Below are positions 5,418 through 36,034 of a stretch of 64,000 bases of DNA, in pieces. This DNA is from Candidatus Nanosyncoccus sp. (GTDB lineage: Bacteria > Patescibacteriota > Saccharimonadia > Saccharimonadales > Saccharimonadaceae). The number at the start of each line of letters is the position of its first letter. Within the stretch, counting starts at the first letter, position 1. The notes below the pieces were generated by a model that did not search any database, had not been told where the DNA came from, and saw only the letters and a list, made by a program, of their open reading frames with translations. The stretch lies in contig JAZRJZ010000006.1 of assembly GCA_045646085.1 (NCBI GenBank), positions 17,164 through 81,163 of the forward strand, in the 5' to 3' direction. The position numbers were made by a program, and so were the translations under genes.

Positions 5418-5830
5418 TGGAAAACCAAGAATGGGTTTATTCAGATAAAGTAAAAGATCATTTCATGAATCCGCGCAATTTTCTCTTTGGCGATGAAAGC
5501 CAGTTTGATTATGATGCGGTTGGAACCGTCGGGAATCCAGTCTGCGGTGACCAGATGAAGATGTACATCAAAGTCGAAGATAATAAAATAACTGATGCGC
5601 GTTGGAAAACTTATGGCTGCGCATCAGCGATAGCTTCAACCTCAGCGCTTTCCGAAATGATAAAAGGCAAAACTATTGATGAAGCATTAAAAATTGATGC
5701 TAAGGCAATCGATGAATATCTTGGCAACTTACCGAAACATAAATTCCACTGTTCGATTCTTGGCCACGAAGCACTTGCTGATGCGGTAAAAGAATACGAA
5801 AAGAACCATTCTGCAGGCGAGGGGATTTAA
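5417..5830 (+). CDS. nifU: NifU/IscU-type Fe-S cluster scaffold
   Basis: The motifs GNPVCGD, YGCASAIAS and HCSILG supply the three scaffold cysteines. Confidence 0.85.
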   Translation: MENQEWVYSDKVKDHFMNPRNFLFGDESQFDYDAVGTVGNPVCGDQMKMYIKVEDNKITDARWKTYGCASAIASTSALSEMIKGKTIDEALKIDAKAIDEYLGNLPKHKFHCSILGHEALADAVKEYEKNHSAGEGI

Positions 5831-5879
5831 CAAACATTTATAGATTACGAAATAGTTAAAAATTATTTTATAAACCGTT

Positions 5880-5927
5880 TGGTGGGTTGTGAGGGGCTCG
5901 CACCGTTAGGTCCGAGCCCCGCTTTTT
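5880..5927. repeat. Exact 21-nt copy of the tRNA-Val 3' end (5880-5900 = 5949-5969), closed into a hairpin GGGGCTCG/CGAGCCCC and followed by a T-run
   Basis: Direct sequence comparison. On the + strand it looks like the intrinsic terminator of nifU. Confidence 0.8.
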
Positions 5928-5948
5928 GCAGTTTTCGTGAAACAAAAA

Positions 5949-6025
5949 TGGTGGGTTGTGAGGGGCTCGAACCCCCGACCTTCTCGGTGTAAACGAGACG
6001 CTCTAGCCAACTGAGCTAACAACCC
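5949..6025 (-). tRNA. tRNA-Val (anticodon UAC)
   Basis: Minus-strand cloverleaf: GGGTTGT acceptor, anticodon loop TTTACAC, GGGGGTTCGAGCCCCT T-arm, encoded CCA. Confidence 0.9.
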
Positions 6026-12239: not shown

Positions 12240-12577
12240 CTTGAGCCCAAAAGGCAATCGCTTTTTTAAAGAGGAAAGTCCGGGCAACACAGAGCATGGT
12301 AGTCGCTAACAGCGACCGTCCGTAAGGATAGGGAAAGTACCACAGAAACTATACCGCCTAAGTTTTTAGGTAAGGGTGAAAAGAGTGAGGTAAGAGCTCA
12401 CAGCGCGCGGTAGCGATACAGCGCGGCGGCAAACCCTACCTGTTGCAAGGAGTGCTAATTCACCTCTGCTCGAGGATGCACGCTTACCGCTAGAACGCTA
12501 TAGCAATGTAGCGTCAAGATAGATGATTGCCAACTTCTTCGGAAGTGACAGAACCCGGCTTAATGAAGGCTCATATC
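12240..12577 (+). ncRNA. rnpB: RNase P RNA (bacterial type A)
   Basis: GAGGAAAGTCCGGGC near the 5' end and ACAGAACCCGGCTTA near the 3' end. P1 pairs TGAGCC (12242) with GGCTCA (12568). An extended -10 TGATATAAT sits at 12228-12236. Confidence 0.9.
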
Positions 12578-16061: not shown

Positions 16062-16416
16062 TGGTGGAGCTGCCGGATACTGCCTCCGGGTCCGAATTAT
16101 CACATGGATACCATTCTACGTACATAGTTTTCTGTTTTGTCTTGGCCACATTTAAAAAGCTGCAGAAAACGAAACTTTCTAAAGCCATGGCTGATTGTCG
16201 GACTACTAAACGCCACGTCAGTAGTCGTATTCCCGTAGTATGATAATCCTGATCCTACGGAACCTTAGAACAGGACCAGCCTACGAATAATTAGGCATAA
16301 GCTGGCATGTAAGCAACATGCGCAGTTTTCGTGTTTTTAGCACTTATTTAATACTTACGGTATTCAATCGGTACGCCTGATATCTGTTAATAAACCGTCT
16401 AAGCTTTTTCAGCCCC
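16062..16416 (-). ncRNA. ssrA: tmRNA (SsrA)
   Basis: The minus strand reads 5' GGGGCTGAAAAAGCTTAGACGG ... TTCGGACCCGGAGGCAGTATCCGGCAGCTCCACCA 3'. The acceptor GGGGCTG/CAGCTCC has G3:U70. The candidate tag ORF is GCT AAA AAC ACG AAA ACT GCG CAT GTT GCT TAC ATG CCA GCT TAT GCC TAA. Confidence 0.85.
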
Positions 16417-26777: not shown

Positions 26778-28306
<1,529 letters not shown>

Positions 28307-28527: not shown

Positions 28528-29589
28528 ATGGAAAATCACAATTCATCTCCATTCAAAAACGAAAACAGTTCACCCGTAGATCATGATTTAGACAAAGGCT
28601 TCGGAGAAAAGGCAGAAGCACCCAGCAAAGTATTTTTAGGAAAAACGAAGGATGGCGCAGAGGTTTACGACAGAATAGACAGCCATTTTCACAGCGAAGG
28701 AGGATTAACGCCTGAGCTCTTGGCGGAGGCCATCGGCACTATAAACTCCAAAGGCAGACCATTCATTAAAGAAAAAATAGACTTCGATCACATCATCGGT
28801 GCTCAAACTTGTGTAGAAACTGGGCCAGAAGACGAAATCGTGATGGTTTATCGCAAGGGAAGAAGCGGCCAAACCCCAATGGTAAAAAATCGAGACACAG
28901 AACCGTGTAATTCGATTATAACCATACTCAGAAAAGACTTTTCAGTTCGCGATAAGGACGCTTATGAGATGGCGACCAGCTATATAGGGAGTGACTCCCC
29001 AAGAGAACCTTGGGATCCTAGCATTAGCACAGACAAAGAGCTTCAACAAAGTACAGATTTTTGGAATTCCCACGCTTTGCTTTATGATGATAGCTTAATC
29101 GATTGGGAAAGGACAAAAGCCTTTGAATTTATGTCCGAGCCTACTAAAAGGGCAGAACTTATTCGGCAAAAAACAATCTATGCTGGACTCTTTGTCGATC
29201 CAGTAGATTTATATCAAAAACAGCCATCAACCCTAGAGAAAAGAATCAAAAACCCGCATGTCACCACAGCATTCAAACCAGGCCTCGATCAGCTTCATCT
29301 CGAACAAATCGGGAGCGTCGCCAGAATATTTGCAATTGGTTATGGCAACGATGGAGAAAATGAAGGCTTACTAGTCAGGATTGAAGCGGATGACCCAGAA
29401 ATTCAAGCGGTGTGCGATAATCTAGAAACTCCCCATATCACTCTATCGATTAGCAAAAAAGGACAAGCTGTAAATACGGCGTTTCTCGATTTTGCGCCTC
29501 TTGAGACCCCATTTGAAATAACAGGATACTACGGGTTATTCTCTCAAGGAAAACCCAGAACTAATCCAGCAGAGCTATCAAATAGTTGA
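28528..29589 (+). CDS. Hypothetical protein with a C-terminal 2H-phosphoesterase-like domain (two H-x-T-x motifs)
   Basis: HVTTAF and HITLSI lie ~58 aa apart in the C-terminal third. The N-terminal ~200 aa are unrecognised. Confidence 0.4.
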   Translation: MENHNSSPFKNENSSPVDHDLDKGFGEKAEAPSKVFLGKTKDGAEVYDRIDSHFHSEGGLTPELLAEAIGTINSKGRPFIKEKIDFDHIIGAQTCVETGPEDEIVMVYRKGRSGQTPMVKNRDTEPCNSIITILRKDFSVRDKDAYEMATSYIGSDSPREPWDPSISTDKELQQSTDFWNSHALLYDDSLIDWERTKAFEFMSEPTKRAELIRQKTIYAGLFVDPVDLYQKQPSTLEKRIKNPHVTTAFKPGLDQLHLEQIGSVARIFAIGYGNDGENEGLLVRIEADDPEIQAVCDNLETPHITLSISKKGQAVNTAFLDFAPLETPFEITGYYGLFSQGKPRTNPAELSNS

Positions 29590-29651
29590 ACTAATTTCGA
29601 CAATTATTCCATTCTTTACCACTATAATTGGCAAGAATTGAAACAACCCAA

Positions 29652-29680
29652 TTGACAAAAACACATTTTAGTGTTATTAT
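29652..29680 (+). promoter_or_regulatory. Promoter TTGACAAAA-...-TATTAT for kinase 1
   Basis: 17-nt spacer. It belongs to the repeated promoter cassette (TTTCGACAA lies 57 nt upstream). Confidence 0.55.
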
Positions 29681-29737
29681 AGCATTATCGCTCAACGGGT
29701 TGAACATTTTCAAGCAATTAGGAGGAGGTGTTATTGC

Positions 29738-30193
29738 GTGGCCAAATTTATTGCGATGGTTGGCATTGCCGGTTCTGGCAAGTCAACGATAGTGGCCAAG
29801 TTGGCAAAAGAGTATGAAGCTGTCGTATGTAGTTCCGATGCTATTCGCGGGGAATTGTATGGCGATGAGTCCATCCAAGGAGACTTTCAGTATGTTTATA
29901 AGCTTATGGAAGAACGTGCTAAGGAGGCTCTCGAGGCAGGACGTAACGTCATTTACGACGCCACCAACGTCACAGCCTGGCGACGCCGTCAAATACTAGC
30001 TTGGCTTCCTCAGGGAGTTGAAAAGGAGTGCGTTTGGGTCAATGTGCCCATTGAAAAGGCACTTCAAAACAATCTGAAGCGAGATCGTCACGTTCCCGAA
30101 TGGGTAGTTCGTCAGCATGCAAAACAGCTAGAGCCGCCCACTTTGACGGAAGGATGGAATCATATTCGCGTTGTCGAATGGCCTCAACACTAA
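29738..30193 (+). CDS. P-loop polynucleotide-kinase-like protein (Pnkp/T4 Pnk kinase-domain type, AAA_33-like), paralog 1
   Basis: GIAGSGKST Walker A, SSDAIRGELYGD, YDATN, RDRHVPEWVV. GTG start behind AGGAGGAGG. Confidence 0.6.
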   Translation: MAKFIAMVGIAGSGKSTIVAKLAKEYEAVVCSSDAIRGELYGDESIQGDFQYVYKLMEERAKEALEAGRNVIYDATNVTAWRRRQILAWLPQGVEKECVWVNVPIEKALQNNLKRDRHVPEWVVRQHAKQLEPPTLTEGWNHIRVVEWPQH

Positions 30194-30219
30194 AGGCGGA
30201 CTAATTAGTCCGCCTTTTT
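30192..30219. terminator. Bidirectional terminator AAAGGCGGACT-AATT-AGTCCGCCTTTTT
   Basis: The stem is almost identical to the terminator at 32162-32189. Confidence 0.8.
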
Positions 30220-30996
30220 ACTATTTTTTTGTTTCAATTCCGTTTGATCAGTTGCTTTACGAATGTATTTTCTAGCAAATAAGAAAAATTGACGCATCGC
30301 ATCAGCTATCTCCGGAGACTCTATCAGCGTAGACATTCCGTCCTTTCCGTAGTTAATAAAGGCTACATTATCTCCAAAAATATCAATTTCCACCGGAGAA
30401 TCATACTCAGAACCAGGCAAAACCGTTCGATCAAGTAATACCTTTTTCGCTGTCTTACTATCTAGATTTACAAAATCATGAGAGGTAATATTATTAGCTT
30501 CAATTTTGGCCGCAACGCGTCGTTTTTTAAAATCTTCAAGCGCCTCGTTATCCGCCATTTCATCAAACTTACTTCTTACAAAATAAAAAGTTCGTCCAGT
30601 ATCCACAATTTTGTCATAGATCATCTTCACCCCCTCCTGCCCATAAAAAGTCGCTACGCCTGGCTCATGTTGACGTTCATTATAATAGTTAATAATCGAG
30701 GGAAGATTACTCTCTAGATTCTTCGCCTGTCTCGCTACAACACGCAGGCGCTTCTCGGCAATGGTTTCAAGTGCAGAAGGATGCTTTGGTACGTAAGCGG
30801 CGATTTTACCTCTGTCTTTCTGGGCAATCAGACCAATTTTCTCTAACTTTTCCGCTGCGGAATAAACCGTAGTTCGATTTTCTCCGATACCATTAGCAAT
30901 TTCAGTAGGGGTGCTTTGCCCGTTTTCTACTAGAAATAAATAGATGTTTGCTTGCATTTCCGACAAGCCAATTTGAGTTAAAATACTTTTGTCCAT
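30205..30996 (-). CDS. TrmB-family transcriptional regulator
   Basis: N-terminal wHTH: LTQIGLSEMQANIYLFLVENGQSTPTEIANGIGENRTTVYSAAEKLEKIGLI. The start was trimmed to MDKSIL. Confidence 0.6.
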   Translation of the reverse strand: MDKSILTQIGLSEMQANIYLFLVENGQSTPTEIANGIGENRTTVYSAAEKLEKIGLIAQKDRGKIAAYVPKHPSALETIAEKRLRVVARQAKNLESNLPSIINYYNERQHEPGVATFYGQEGVKMIYDKIVDTGRTFYFVRSKFDEMADNEALEDFKKRRVAAKIEANNITSHDFVNLDSKTAKKVLLDRTVLPGSEYDSPVEIDIFGDNVAFINYGKDGMSTLIESPEIADAMRQFFLFARKYIRKATDQTELKQKNSKKAD

Positions 30997-31093
30997 AGAT
31001 CCATTATAGTCCCAAAAATAGGATTTTGTCAATATCATTTCGACAAAATTTCAAATCCCCACCTCTATAAAAAATAAATTTATGTTATTATAG

Positions 31094-31122
31094 TTGACAA
31101 AAATAGAGTTTTTTGCTATACT
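31094..31122 (+). promoter_or_regulatory. Promoter TTGACAAAA-17-TATACT for the large untranslated transcript
   Basis: Read directly. It is divergent from the TrmB-like gene. Confidence 0.65.
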
Positions 31123-31128
31123 TACAAC

Positions 31129-32189
31129 AGTTGCGAAAAGTTGGGAGCTTCGAGCAATCGCATTTTAAAACATTGTTCCAAAATCACTTCACAGTTTTTT
31201 AGACAAAGCTTGAGGTGACATTCCAGCGAAATAAAAGGTTGAAGCGGTATTTCGTTGGAGCGTCACCTTAAGCGGACCGCTTTTGGTGGCGACGTCGCGT
31301 CGTATAATGCTAAACCAGTTGTAGAGGTAAGATTTGACCCTTGCCTTGGCTGGATACACAGAAGGCCGTCTTTGACGGCTAGACACGAGAAAGCTATCAA
31401 AAGCAGAATTGCCTCCGTGTGAGATAGCAAGTATCGAGGGAGTTTAGTAATAAACTCCTATACGATACCCGAAAGGGAATCGTAAAAACTGTGTAGTATG
31501 GACGTTTTGGAGCGAACCGATCGTAAGGTTTGCTTATGTTGTACAGCACACGAGCCTAAGAACGGGACACGGTGACGGCCTCTTGCCTCCAAGTGGAGAC
31601 GAGTAGGAGAGAAGGTGGTGTAGTGAATGGCCGCAAACCATTCATCAAACCGCATGGCGTCGCGCTTCCTGAGCCTCAAAAACTCAGGGATGTTTCCCAA
31701 TGTTCGATCCTGGCCTTCAACACAGAGGTGTTGAGGGGTGCCTCAGGAGCCTGCCGGAGGGCAGGAGGTAAGTGGTACCGGGTGGCAAGCGAGGAAGCCT
31801 CGCCTATGAATATGAAACAGTCCTGGACGTTTTGGCGTCCGGGACGAGATTACCGCAAGGTATCTCTAGCCCCTTGGGCTAGCTCGGCGGACTCCGCCGG
31901 TCATATTCAACTCGGTTCGTGTACTAGGTGCCTTACGAGGCTTCCTCACAAAGGTACACGTGGGCAAGCAAACCCAAAGACAGAGGAGTATCGAGTAGGT
32001 GGTCGGCCAACCATTCGAAAGTGCGAGATCTGTTAGAGGGTGTCCATGGCTCAACAACAACAAAACGTTTTCGTCACCAAACCGTAGGGATACGATAAGG
32101 GACGAAGGAAAACCATTGGAAGTATGGCCCCAAGCCAAAACCTTCCTAGCATTTTACACGTGGCGGACTATCAAGTCCGCCTATTTTTT
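31129..32189 (+). ncRNA. Candidate giant structured ncRNA (~1.06 kb), family unassigned
   Basis: It runs from promoter to terminator and carries no credible ORF. At least 13 perfect local hairpins are present, for example 31468-31477 CCCGAAAGGG, GTGAATGG-CCGCAAA-CCATTCAT, CCTGCC-GGAG-GGCAGG, GTCCTGGACG-TTTTGG-CGTCCGGGAC, CTAGCCC-CTT-GGGCTAG and CGGCGG-ACT-CCGCCG. It is more G+C-rich than its flanks. Confidence 0.6.
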
Positions 32190-32265
32190 ACCATAGATTG
32201 TCGAAGTTATTTCGACAAATTCTCGAAATCTCACCCCTGCAAAAATCACAATCATAACTTTGCAA

Positions 32266-32294
32266 TTGACAAAATACGTCATTTCTGCTATAAT
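32266..32294 (+). promoter_or_regulatory. Promoter TTGACAAAA-17-TATAAT for the DUF1874 gene (structured ~165-nt 5' UTR)
   Basis: Read directly. The inverted repeat TTGTCGAA-N5-TTCGACAA lies 56 nt upstream. Confidence 0.65.
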
Positions 32295-32465
32295 GGTAGC
32301 AACAATCAGCAAATGATTGTGCAGTTTAAAATAGCATTAAGATATCCTGTTGGTTCCTGTGGCTAATTGTGGGTTATTTAGTCTAGCCTACAATCAGCCA
32401 CAGGAGACGTCCTTGGCCGAAATATCTTTTCGGCCGACGGGCCAAAAACAGGAAAGGAGCGCGGT

Positions 32466-32792
32466 ATGAATTACCTCGCCAACGCCTTCAGTTTGCAGAT
32501 GCTTGATGTCGCCACGGAGATTAACGTCTCCATCCGGCCTATCGAGCCGACCGAGGTCCCCTCGGACGCGATCAGCTGCATCGGCCATGCCGATACGGCG
32601 AATGTCGTATCCGACCTCCTCGGCCGGCCGGTAGCGTGCCACCGGGCGAGCATTGCCCTTGAAGAAGACGACGTCTTGTACGTCGCCCAAATCATGGGCG
32701 GGCGACTGCCTGAAGGCGCCACCACCCTACCGGAGGGGTTTAGCCTTCAGTTCCTGGAGGTAGTCCCCTACATCAAAGTCCTCCCGTATTAG
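32466..32792 (+). CDS. DUF1874-family protein (AcrIII-1/Crn2-type cyclic tetra-adenylate ring nuclease family)
   Basis: 108 aa. The N-terminus is YLANAFSLQML, followed by SCIGHADTANVVSDLLG and GGRLPEGATTLPEG, the pattern I associate with SIRV1 gp29, STIV B116 and ICEBs1 YddF. RBS GGAAAGGAG. Confidence 0.65.
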   Translation: MNYLANAFSLQMLDVATEINVSIRPIEPTEVPSDAISCIGHADTANVVSDLLGRPVACHRASIALEEDDVLYVAQIMGGRLPEGATTLPEGFSLQFLEVVPYIKVLPY

Positions 32793-35590: not shown

Positions 35591-36034
35591 ATGGCTCCTA
35601 GATTTGTCATGATGGTTGGCTTGGCCGGCTCTGGTAAATCTACAGTCGCCAAACGCCTCGCAACCGAAAACGGCGCTCACATAATCAGCTCTGACTCCAT
35701 CAGGAAAGAGCTCTATGGCGACGAAACTATTCAGGGTGACTCTAAGCTCGTATTTCGACTTATGGACGAACGGTGCCTGGCCGCTCTCGCGCAGGGAACA
35801 AGCGTTATTTACGACGCCACCAATGTCTCTGTTCGTTTCCGTGAACAGATACTGGAAAAAATCCCTCCAGAAGTTGAAAAAGAATGCGTGTGGGTAAAAA
35901 CCTCAGTCGATGTAGCGCTAGAGCGCAATCTCAAGCGCGACCGGCAGGTCCCCGAATGGGTCATCATCCGACAAGCAAGTCGGCTTCAGCCGCCTACCTG
36001 GGAAGAAGGCTGGAGCCAAATCCGTGTTGTTTAG
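35591..36034 (+). CDS. P-loop polynucleotide-kinase-like protein, paralog 2
   Basis: GLAGSGKST, SSDSIRKELYGD, YDATN, RDRQVPEWVI. About 60% identical to the 29738 product by hand alignment (about 88 of 147 positions). Confidence 0.6.
   Translation: MAPRFVMMVGLAGSGKSTVAKRLATENGAHIISSDSIRKELYGDETIQGDSKLVFRLMDERCLAALAQGTSVIYDATNVSVRFREQILEKIPPEVEKECVWVKTSVDVALERNLKRDRQVPEWVIIRQASRLQPPTWEEGWSQIRVV

Follow-up and report, generated by a model that had tools for sequence, protein, structure and literature searches.

A probable new class of very large structured RNA encoded on the chromosomes of ruminant-gut Saccharibacteria

Large folded bacterial RNAs of unknown function are rare, the main examples being GOLLD, ROOL, OLE, raiA and HEARO. 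Each of these has proved biochemically surprising, and recent work on GOLLD, ROOL and OLE has revealed cages or dimers made of RNA only. ROOL is about 580 nt long and has Bacillota as hosts; OLE adjoins oapA and works as a membrane ribonucleoprotein (RNP). Here we describe a locus in a 64,000-nt segment of Candidatus Nanosyncoccus sp. (assembly GCA_045646085.1, contig JAZRJZ010000006.1, positions 17,164 to 81,163; hereafter the window, with positions counted from its first letter). Our analysis assigns a probability of roughly 85% to the interpretation that positions 31129-32189 of the forward strand form an independent gene, the product of which would be a very large structured non-coding RNA (ncRNA) of about 1,061 nt belonging to a new class, found in ruminant-gut Saccharibacteria.

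Many GOLLD members exceed 800 nt and are encoded by phages or prophages, often near tRNA islands (PMC12286853). ROOL is likewise phage- or prophage-encoded near tRNA islands (PMC12286853), and rumen samples are among its sources (PMC5737381; PMC12286853). OLE measures about 600 nt, occurs mostly in extremophilic or anaerobic Bacillota (PMC12054373), and carries a palindromic tetranucleotide loop that forms a symmetric intermolecular kissing contact (PMC12286853). The RNA described here resembles GOLLD (RF01998) in its very large size, dozens of covarying helices, pseudoknot candidates, combination of variable and conserved halves, and nearby phage-type accessory genes. It differs in being ~1,060 nt long, in lacking a match to RF01998, in its position on a Saccharibacteria chromosome rather than beside tRNAs (the nearest lie more than 6 kb off), and in the absence of its motifs from IMG/VR. 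With ROOL (RF03087) it shares a rumen origin, large and ornate architecture, pseudoknot candidates, conserved kissing-type loops and the lack of a known protein partner, but the RF03087 model is unmatched, and ROOL is much shorter and phage-borne, whereas this RNA occurs in the chromosomes of Saccharibacteria, which belong to the Candidate Phyla Radiation (CPR). Like OLE (RF01071) it is chromosomal, highly conserved and large, and the OLE palindromic loop has a counterpart in an invariant GGCC loop at 32004-32009; RF01071 is nevertheless unmatched, the host is a Saccharibacterium, and no oapA-type membrane partner is present, the neighbours being TrmB, a polynucleotide kinase (PNK)-like kinase, and B116-like or DUF212 genes. 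The phage or prophage context near tRNA islands that characterises GOLLD and ROOL is replaced here by a position between gyrA/16S and housekeeping genes.

Rfam 15 was searched with cmscan across the whole window at the gathering score, across 30900-32500 at E <= 10 and across five homolog loci at E <= 1, and no family matched the RNA at any of these thresholds, the GOLLD, ROOL, OLE, HEARO and intron models included. This agrees with an earlier sequence-only reading of the locus, in which a giant structured ncRNA had been proposed that could be assigned to none of GOLLD, ROOL or OLE and that was longer than such ornate families usually are; at ~1,060 nt the RNA exceeds even GOLLD, the largest of the three RNAs shown as RNA-only assemblies. 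The properties of large ornate bacterial ncRNAs (more than 500 nt, non-coding, covarying helices, pseudoknots and conserved loops) were all recovered, the pseudoknots as two candidates, with 271-297 base pairs, 117-121 of them compensatory, according to the alignment used. We rate the putative RNA as a new, previously undescribed class with no detectable relation to GOLLD, ROOL or OLE. Searches of the full-text literature, for which journal coverage was partial, turned up no report of a large ncRNA from Saccharibacteria or Patescibacteria, and the locus is the first such candidate found for the CPR.

The RNA also invites comparison with group I and II introns, RNase P RNA, tmRNA and rRNA as examples of large ribozymes and stable RNAs, which share its size class, its multi-domain fold closed by long-range pairing and its GNRA tetraloops. 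Its G+C content, which rises to 0.48-0.56 across the gene, and its positive GC skew are like those of the 16S gene in the window. An RNase P RNA of class A (12242-12577, forward strand, 240 bits) and a tmRNA (16062-16416, reverse strand, 88 bits) are encoded elsewhere in the window, so the new RNA is not a divergent form of either. It differs from group II introns in having no Intron_gpII or group-II-D1D4 match at E <= 10, in possessing its own promoter and terminator, and in not lying inside a host gene; no reverse transcriptase domain or intron-encoded protein was found among the neighbouring proteins scanned. HEARO and the omega RNAs of IscB-TnpB systems differ as well, since no Rfam model matched and no IscB or TnpB gene is among the neighbours listed. 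A contextual analogy can be drawn to rsr-Y RNA-rtcBA loci, where an ncRNA gene likewise lies among RNA-end-processing-type enzymes (here a PNK-like AAA_33 protein and a 353-aa protein) with a dedicated transcription factor; but no Ro, RtcB or RtcA was present among the neighbours scanned, and the kinase and the 353-aa protein accompany the RNA in some lineages only. Y RNAs are about 100-200 nt long and partly tRNA-like.

The predicted transcript extends from the predicted transcription start at 31129 to the end of the terminator U-run at 32189. It is preceded by a sigma-70-type promoter, P1 (31094-31122, forward strand), of the form TTGACA-17-TGcTATACT, with 11 of 12 consensus matches and an extended -10 TG, and it is closed by an intrinsic terminator with an 8-bp G+C-rich stem (32162-32181) followed by UAUUUUUU to 32189. 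Both elements lie exactly where the sequence-only reading had placed them, enclosing about 1,060 nt. They are conserved with the RNA in related genomes: a P1-type promoter (TTGACA/TTTACA-17-TATACT) and the 5' start ACAGUUGC are each kept in eight of nine lineages, the ninth (L058) having a P2-type promoter, the region's second promoter type, and a different 5' leader, and the terminator hairpin with its U-run closes the RNA in all nine, four of its pairs showing compensatory changes. The A/U-rich leader (31129-31208) is otherwise poorly conserved, apart from these first bases and a small helix (31130-31134/31154-31158).

Folding statistics support a structured product of the forward strand. 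The region from 31200 to 32160 folds with z = -14.2 relative to dinucleotide shuffles, and the minimum free energy (MFE) of the RNA region is -434 kcal/mol on the forward strand vs -379 kcal/mol on the reverse strand. RNAalifold applied to seven aligned sequences gave a consensus of 297 pairs in 45 helices, with 96.4% of cells paired and 117 compensatory pairs, vs 49.5±4.8 in shuffled alignments (0/500 reached the observed count) and 18-24 with slid partners. With ten sequences from nine lineages, the consensus comprised 271 pairs in 41 helices (96.7% of cells paired), of which 121 were compensatory, vs 60.2±4.8 shuffled (0/500) and 22-29 slid, and its covariation score was 0.391, vs 0.22 for shuffled and 0.09 for slid controls. 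As a control for a consensus scored on its own source alignment, the MFE structure of the window sequence, which is blind to the alignment, was projected onto it: 88.5% of cells were paired and 141 pairs were compensatory, vs 77±5.7 shuffled and 37-48 slid. The z-score, the homologs in nine lineages and the 121 compensatory pairs among 271 bear out the proposal of a giant structured ncRNA. Nine lineages and more than 100 covarying pairs also make the RNA an immediately usable target for cryo-EM, in-vitro biochemistry and the mining of rumen metatranscriptomes.

The resulting fold is multi-domain, with some 38-45 helices, covarying long-range closing helices, and gain and loss of hairpins at expansion sites. 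Downstream of the leader, a long 22-bp hairpin (H2, 31209-31272) carries nine pairs with compensatory changes. The main body (31308-32151) is closed by H3 (31308-31312/32147-32151) and nests the long-range helices H5, H11, H13, H14, H24 and H30; compensatory changes affect three of five pairs in H3, five of eight in H11 (31502-31509 with 32061-32068) and three of nine in H13, and these covarying long-range pairs argue for one folded molecule. The most conserved core (31481-31585) includes the blocks UGUACAGCACAC and ACGGUGACGG, both invariant in the nine lineages. A central multi-helix domain closed by H14 (31549-31774) contains H15-H23 with GCAA and A-rich loops, and helices H17, H19, H20 and H22 show 6-7 compensatory pairs each. 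It is followed by a variable expansion region (31804-31883) with lineage-specific hairpins and, towards the 3' end, by a hairpin domain formed by H35 and H36 (32069-32107). In this domain the GGGA loop and the strands ACCAAACCG and CGAUAAGG of an internal loop are invariant, and H35 has seven compensatory pairs. A second insertion site follows 32107, where a hairpin is inserted in L045, L048, L056 and L058.

Twelve local helices had been listed in the sequence-only reading, ten of which recur as conserved helices in the homologs, while the other two fall in the lineage-variable region. Nine are part of the ten-sequence consensus; seven of these contain 3-9 compensatory pairs within the helix, and the CCC-GAAA-GGG tip, which is part of H10, and GCGAGG-AAG-CCUCGC contain two and one, respectively. 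GCCGUC-UUU-GACGGC is present in the seven-sequence consensus, with five compensatory pairs, and in the projected MFE structure. The third helix of the list needs correction in its outer part (UAUCG...CGAUA), as covariation pairs CGAUA with a downstream AAUCGUA instead (H10, 31461-31470/31475-31484). Of the two variable hairpins, the 10-bp GUCCUGGACG hairpin occurs in this species alone and shows a C-G to U-A double change relative to the 99%-identical L030 copy; at the position of the CUAGCCC hairpin, other lineages have analogous UUCG-type hairpins.

Little or no variation is seen in the hairpin loops GUAA, GAAA, GAUNGUAA, GCAA and GGGA or in a CGGCCA hexaloop, and the four GNRA tetraloops, near-invariant across lineages, suggest, by analogy with other large RNAs, tetraloop-receptor packing. 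The hexaloop (32004-32009) sits on the covarying stem H34 and displays an invariant self-complementary GGCC. In OLE and GOLLD, such palindromic loops bring about homo-oligomerisation through symmetric kissing between molecules (PMC12286853), and a kissing role would be conceivable here by analogy; this loop is the sole hint of a homo-oligomeric, RNA-only assembly in the present RNA. A scan for additional covarying stacks yielded, beyond the nested structure, two pseudoknot candidates with two covarying positions each, well above slid controls. In PK1, the UGACC loop of hairpin H4 (31335-31339) would pair with GGUCA at 31899-31903; its 5-bp core is 100% paired, with UA replaced by CG in three sequences and GC by AU in two, and it extends to 7 bp in clade B (L043, L044 and L061). 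In PK2, the loop and 3' stem of GCGAGG-AAG-CCUCGC (31795-31801) would pair with GAGGCUU (31937-31943), with a loop G-C changed to A-U in four sequences and a U-A to C-G in one, giving a duplex of 9-10 bp in most lineages. PK1 and PK2 are good candidates for pseudoknots, supported but more weakly so than the nested structure.

Other candidate features were rejected. UAUGG and CCUAAG, considered as an 11-nt receptor for a GAAA tetraloop, are not facing strands in the conserved structure, and UAUGG has a G that varies. Mimicry of a Shine-Dalgarno sequence by the invariant GCCUCCGUGU or by GGAGAGAAGG was dropped because GGAG is not conserved in L043, and several additional 4-bp 'covarying' stacks on the U-rich strand 31502-31509 were judged to be due to chance.

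Full-length homologs were recovered from nine ruminant-gut Saccharibacteria lineages (L030, L001, L045, L048, L043, L044, L056, L058 and L061), with pairwise identities of 62-81%; the L030 copy is 99% identical to the RNA of the window, and the alignment of L001 to the window is 84% identical overall. They were reached by three routes. Loci around TrmB homologs yielded L001, L030-33, L045-47 and L048; a scan of JGI metagenomes with a degenerate probe, derived from an aligned reverse-strand 'pseudo-protein' of the conserved core, yielded L043 and L044; and a profile search of protein databases with spurious forward-frame open reading frames (ORFs) yielded L056-L064. Aligned single-frame pseudo-ORFs were the query form that recovered homologs, as a concatenated six-frame 'pseudo-protein' found no match although a spurious ORF from the RNA is present in the database searched. 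An exhaustive phmmer search with pseudo-ORFs against 1.84 billion representative proteins returned five clusters only, which implies that the RNA family is rare or narrowly distributed. In IMG/VR, no exact or near-exact match was found for three RNA-specific motifs of 19-23 nt, drawn from the window/L001 alignment, one of them a 19-nt motif invariant in all lineages, and a low-complexity motif, GGCUCAACAACAACAAAACG, matched only unrelated Q-rich coding sequences there. Distant BLAST against GenBank phages gave no match to the RNA. A 20-mer motif likewise found no match in JGI metagenomes, because distant lineages differ by 1-2 bases in those blocks. Relatives of the TrmB-like protein were found only in metagenome-assembled genomes of Candidatus Saccharibacteria / Nanosyncoccus, from cattle, sheep and goat guts, and the loci of the TrmB homologs P0006, P0007, P0009 and P0010 are without the RNA. 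One further locus, L021, was considered as a partial homolog and rejected, its similarity being confined to a shared promoter module in front of a gene for a 160-aa protein. CPR genomes are strongly reduced, so that the retention of a 1-kb non-coding gene implies real selective value.

The coding tests gave a consistent picture. Internal ORFs had been described as short and present on both strands, which is true of most, but one GTG-initiated ORF (31572-32036, forward strand) reaches 154 aa. This ORF has no Pfam match, is broken in other lineages, and shows no three-nucleotide periodicity, with divergences per codon phase of 0.243, 0.225 and 0.269; the reverse frame and the element as a whole are just as flat. 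Each lineage has 16-27 indel runs, of which 13-26 have a length that three does not divide, and which frames are open varies with the lineage. The best-conserved 105 nt, coinciding with the core at 31481-31585, differ from L001 at two positions and hence contain almost no synonymous-type changes, beside flanks that change radically. Three-nucleotide periodicity, an intact ORF in homologs and lack of covariation had been named beforehand as refuting outcomes, and none of them occurred. This evidence points clearly to an RNA, rather than a protein, as the predicted gene product. Public assemblies contain 'hypothetical proteins' (P0121-P0129, 91-163 aa) translated from the RNA gene; these are gene-calling artefacts in a G+C-rich RNA, and protein databases currently hold such spurious translations. 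Taken as a whole, the comparative analysis shows an independent, conserved non-coding unit of predicted transcription, whose sequence is constrained by an elaborate single-molecule fold.

The gene lies on a chromosomal segment that also carries gyrA, 16S rRNA, RNase P RNA and tmRNA genes, in surroundings that vary. The RNA and TrmB genes point away from each other in the window, L045 and L058, whereas in L001 and L056 they are convergent and close together. In L048 the RNA is found upstream of a polynucleotide-kinase-like gene, and in L043, L044 and L061 between gyrA and a DUF212 gene, beside the 16S gene. The distance between RNA and 16S gene is about 0.2-3 kb in the window, L001 and L044, and six of nine lineages have the TrmB gene next to the RNA or close by. 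Because neighbours change while promoter, terminator and fold stay, the RNA would be a compactly folded molecule that acts in trans. Its role could be that of a protein scaffold, of a self-assembling RNA-only particle like GOLLD, ROOL or OLE, of the core of an RNP, or of a catalyst. We favour, by analogy, a scaffold, self-assembling particle or RNP core, since GOLLD, ROOL and OLE are held together by devices like its GNRA loops, pseudoknot candidates and GGCC loop; a ribozyme would be the alternative.

Upstream of the RNA promoter lies a palindromic operator-like site, AUUUUGUCAAUAUCAUUUCGACAAAAU (31023-31049), whose left half overlaps the -35 element of a divergent promoter (31032-31003) that serves a TrmB-family winged-helix regulator (30205-30999, reverse strand; Pfam TrmB, E = 3.5e-12), the mRNA of which is probably leaderless. 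L001, L045 and L048 have the same inverted repeat equally far upstream of the RNA promoter, and L056 has a less clear version of it. In clade B a different palindrome, UGUAAAA-N5-UUUUACA, takes this position, as expected if the cognate regulator co-evolved with its site. An ACCYCURU box between palindrome and -35 hexamer (31060-31072, forward strand) is found upstream of every RNA copy examined. The window contains a second promoter module (32197-32294, forward strand), with a palindrome (32197-32220), an ACCCCUG box (32232-32244) and TTGACA-17-TATAAT, which drives the downstream B116-like gene, and nhmmer detected a further module match at 29554-29718, upstream of a kinase gene. Across related genomes a module of ~100 nt recurs, composed of a UUGUCGA-N5-UCGACAA palindrome, the ACCYCURU box and consensus -35/-10 elements, at the head of differing cargo genes (for example L001:2899-2999 and 5813-5943; L021:5064-5204 and 5920-5974; L024:1537-1644). 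Most related genomes have one module directly between TrmB and its divergent neighbour, with other copies heading other genes; as the module usually stands directly beside TrmB, the RNA with a module of its own looks like an extra cassette.

The region near gyrA and 16S is thus a variable array of module-cargo-terminator cassettes in which the RNA is one cargo, and the set of modules resembles a small regulon whose cassettes can be exchanged. A bidirectional terminator separating the kinase gene from TrmB (30192-30217) and the RNA terminator (32162-32181) have a common stem, GGCGGACU...AGUCCGCC, which suggests cassette-like reuse of regulatory parts. Transcription of the RNA would probably be co-regulated with accessory cassettes encoding polynucleotide-kinase-like, B116/Csx16-like and Csx3 ring-nuclease-like proteins and small orphan genes, through the shared upstream palindrome, which is most likely bound by the adjacent TrmB-family regulator. 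This protein is a candidate binder of the palindrome, and we infer from the gene arrangement that it may control the RNA. The shared promoter-palindrome cassettes provide an entry point to the regulation of Saccharibacteria genes, a field hardly explored so far. A bolder picture, which we regard as tentative and rather unlikely as a whole, is that of the largest structured bacterial RNA known outside the ribosome, encoded on the chromosomes of ultra-small CPR symbionts, forming an RNA-only homo-oligomer through GGCC kissing and GNRA loops or else the core of a new large ribozyme or RNP, and switched on with RNA-end-processing and cyclic-oligoadenylate ring-nuclease cassettes by a TrmB-type regulator in a host- or phage-stress response of an epibiont.

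Several points weigh against a new class of large RNA with this proposed role. The transcript, its ends and its abundance are predicted, and the function is assigned purely by analogy. The consensus structure was scored on the alignment from which it came, a circularity that the MFE projection mitigates without removing, and covariation is silent on H16, H24 and the part of H14 for which an alternative pairing exists, as these are invariant. All homologs belong to one narrow group, the nine lineages of ruminant-gut Saccharibacteria, so some compensatory changes counted as independent will have been inherited rather than repeated. The proposed link to TrmB rests on position and the palindrome; the short RNA contigs of clade B do not include a TrmB gene, and in GCA_016648615.1 it is on a different contig.

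Among the alternatives, an RNA belonging to a mobile or phage element, such as an ORF-less group I or II intron, a guide RNA of a retroelement or transposon, or a divergent relative of GOLLD or ROOL, fares best, although we consider it improbable. The position and orientation of the gene relative to TrmB vary between lineages, direct repeats of the promoter module flank the RNA in the window, ROOL is also rumen-derived (PMC5737381; PMC12286853), and neighbouring genes for a polynucleotide kinase, MazG and a B116/Csx16-like protein resemble phage accessory genes, which is the part of an earlier suggestion of a mobile-element context that held up. The other part did not, as the locus is chromosomal, beside gyrA and 16S, and the RNA motifs and the distant BLAST search found nothing in IMG/VR and GenBank phages, respectively. 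In addition, the Rfam models for introns, GOLLD, ROOL and HEARO are unmatched in the window and the five homolog loci, and no reverse transcriptase, transposase, integrase or IscB/TnpB was found among the Pfam-scanned neighbours in the window or the genes listed in related loci. Each window or locus has a single copy of the RNA, bounded by its own promoter and terminator instead of exon flanks.

Marginally less probable is the processing of a precursor transcript into several functional RNAs of smaller size. The modular sequence, many local hairpins, variable expansion segments and poorly conserved 5' leader would fit such processing, but the covarying helices H3 (31308/32151), H11 (31502/32068) and H13 (31537/32059) join the 5' and 3' parts, and PK1 would join 31335 to 31899, as expected of a single large RNA. 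Less credible still is a cis-acting leader of the downstream operon (the B116-like gene and a gene for a 241-aa protein) or an antisense regulator of a neighbour. In the window and L045 the B116-like operon does come immediately after the RNA, but the two are divided by a strong terminator and a full second promoter, and a conserved structure of 1 kb is far beyond the needs of known leaders. Flanking genes differ between lineages, which makes either role unlikely: downstream are found an 88-aa ORF, a polynucleotide kinase gene with its own promoter, a convergent TrmB gene, a gene for a 368-aa protein, or membrane/DUF212 genes. A decayed or mis-framed protein gene can practically be dismissed: gene callers have made hypothetical proteins of the 154-aa ORF and its relatives in public assemblies (P0121, P0124-P0128), and a 94-codon reverse-strand frame (31461-31742) is open in both the window and L001, but the flat codon phases, mostly frame-shifting indels, lineage-dependent open frames, core nearly free of substitutions at synonymous sites too, absence of a Pfam match, occurrence of only five such 'protein' clusters among 1.84 billion representatives and 121 covarying base pairs all contradict it.

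The neighbours of the proposed RNA gene are accessory and phage-like in character, and include AAA_33 kinases, with best matches to the kinase domains of Pnkp, PNK and PSTK, and MazG. The B116/DUF1874 protein resembles Csx16, and Csx3-AAA proteins are encoded in L001 and L056. Genes similar to those for cyclic-oligoadenylate ring nucleases stand beside TrmB in the window (32466-32792, forward strand), L001 (3026-4336, reverse strand), L056 (3748-5052), L034-L037 and L054, and no CRISPR-Cas genes were found among the neighbouring genes scanned or those listed for related loci. The 16S gene (26778-28306, forward strand) stands alone, with 23S and 5S undetected in the remaining 36 kb downstream, which suggests that rRNA genes are not linked here.

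Two paralogous polynucleotide-kinase-like AAA_33 genes (29738-30193 and 35591-36034, both on the forward strand) bracket the island, the first preceded by an orphan gene for a 353-aa protein (28528-29589, forward strand), homologs of which adjoin the RNA or TrmB in L045 and L058. This protein has a phage-family N-terminal domain and two HxT motifs, PHVTTAF and PHITLSI. Its match to LigT_PEase is sub-threshold (E = 0.038), its one PDB-sequence match has E = 0.44, Pfam and NCBIfam gave nothing significant, and an AlphaFold model from the single sequence had a predicted local distance difference test (pLDDT) score of 33; a 2H-phosphoesterase would be a guess, and kinase and 353-aa protein may form an RNA-end healing pair.

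The B116-like gene of the window (STIV_B116/DUF1874) has a G+C content of ~60%, vs a background of ~42%. Its 5' leader (32301-32468, forward strand) matched only atpB in Rfam, at chance level (E = 8). The leader is itself strongly structured, with an MFE of -70.4 kcal/mol (z = -7.4); it forms one long hairpin near 32355-32404 plus another, G+C-rich hairpin, and could be a separate cis-regulatory RNA.

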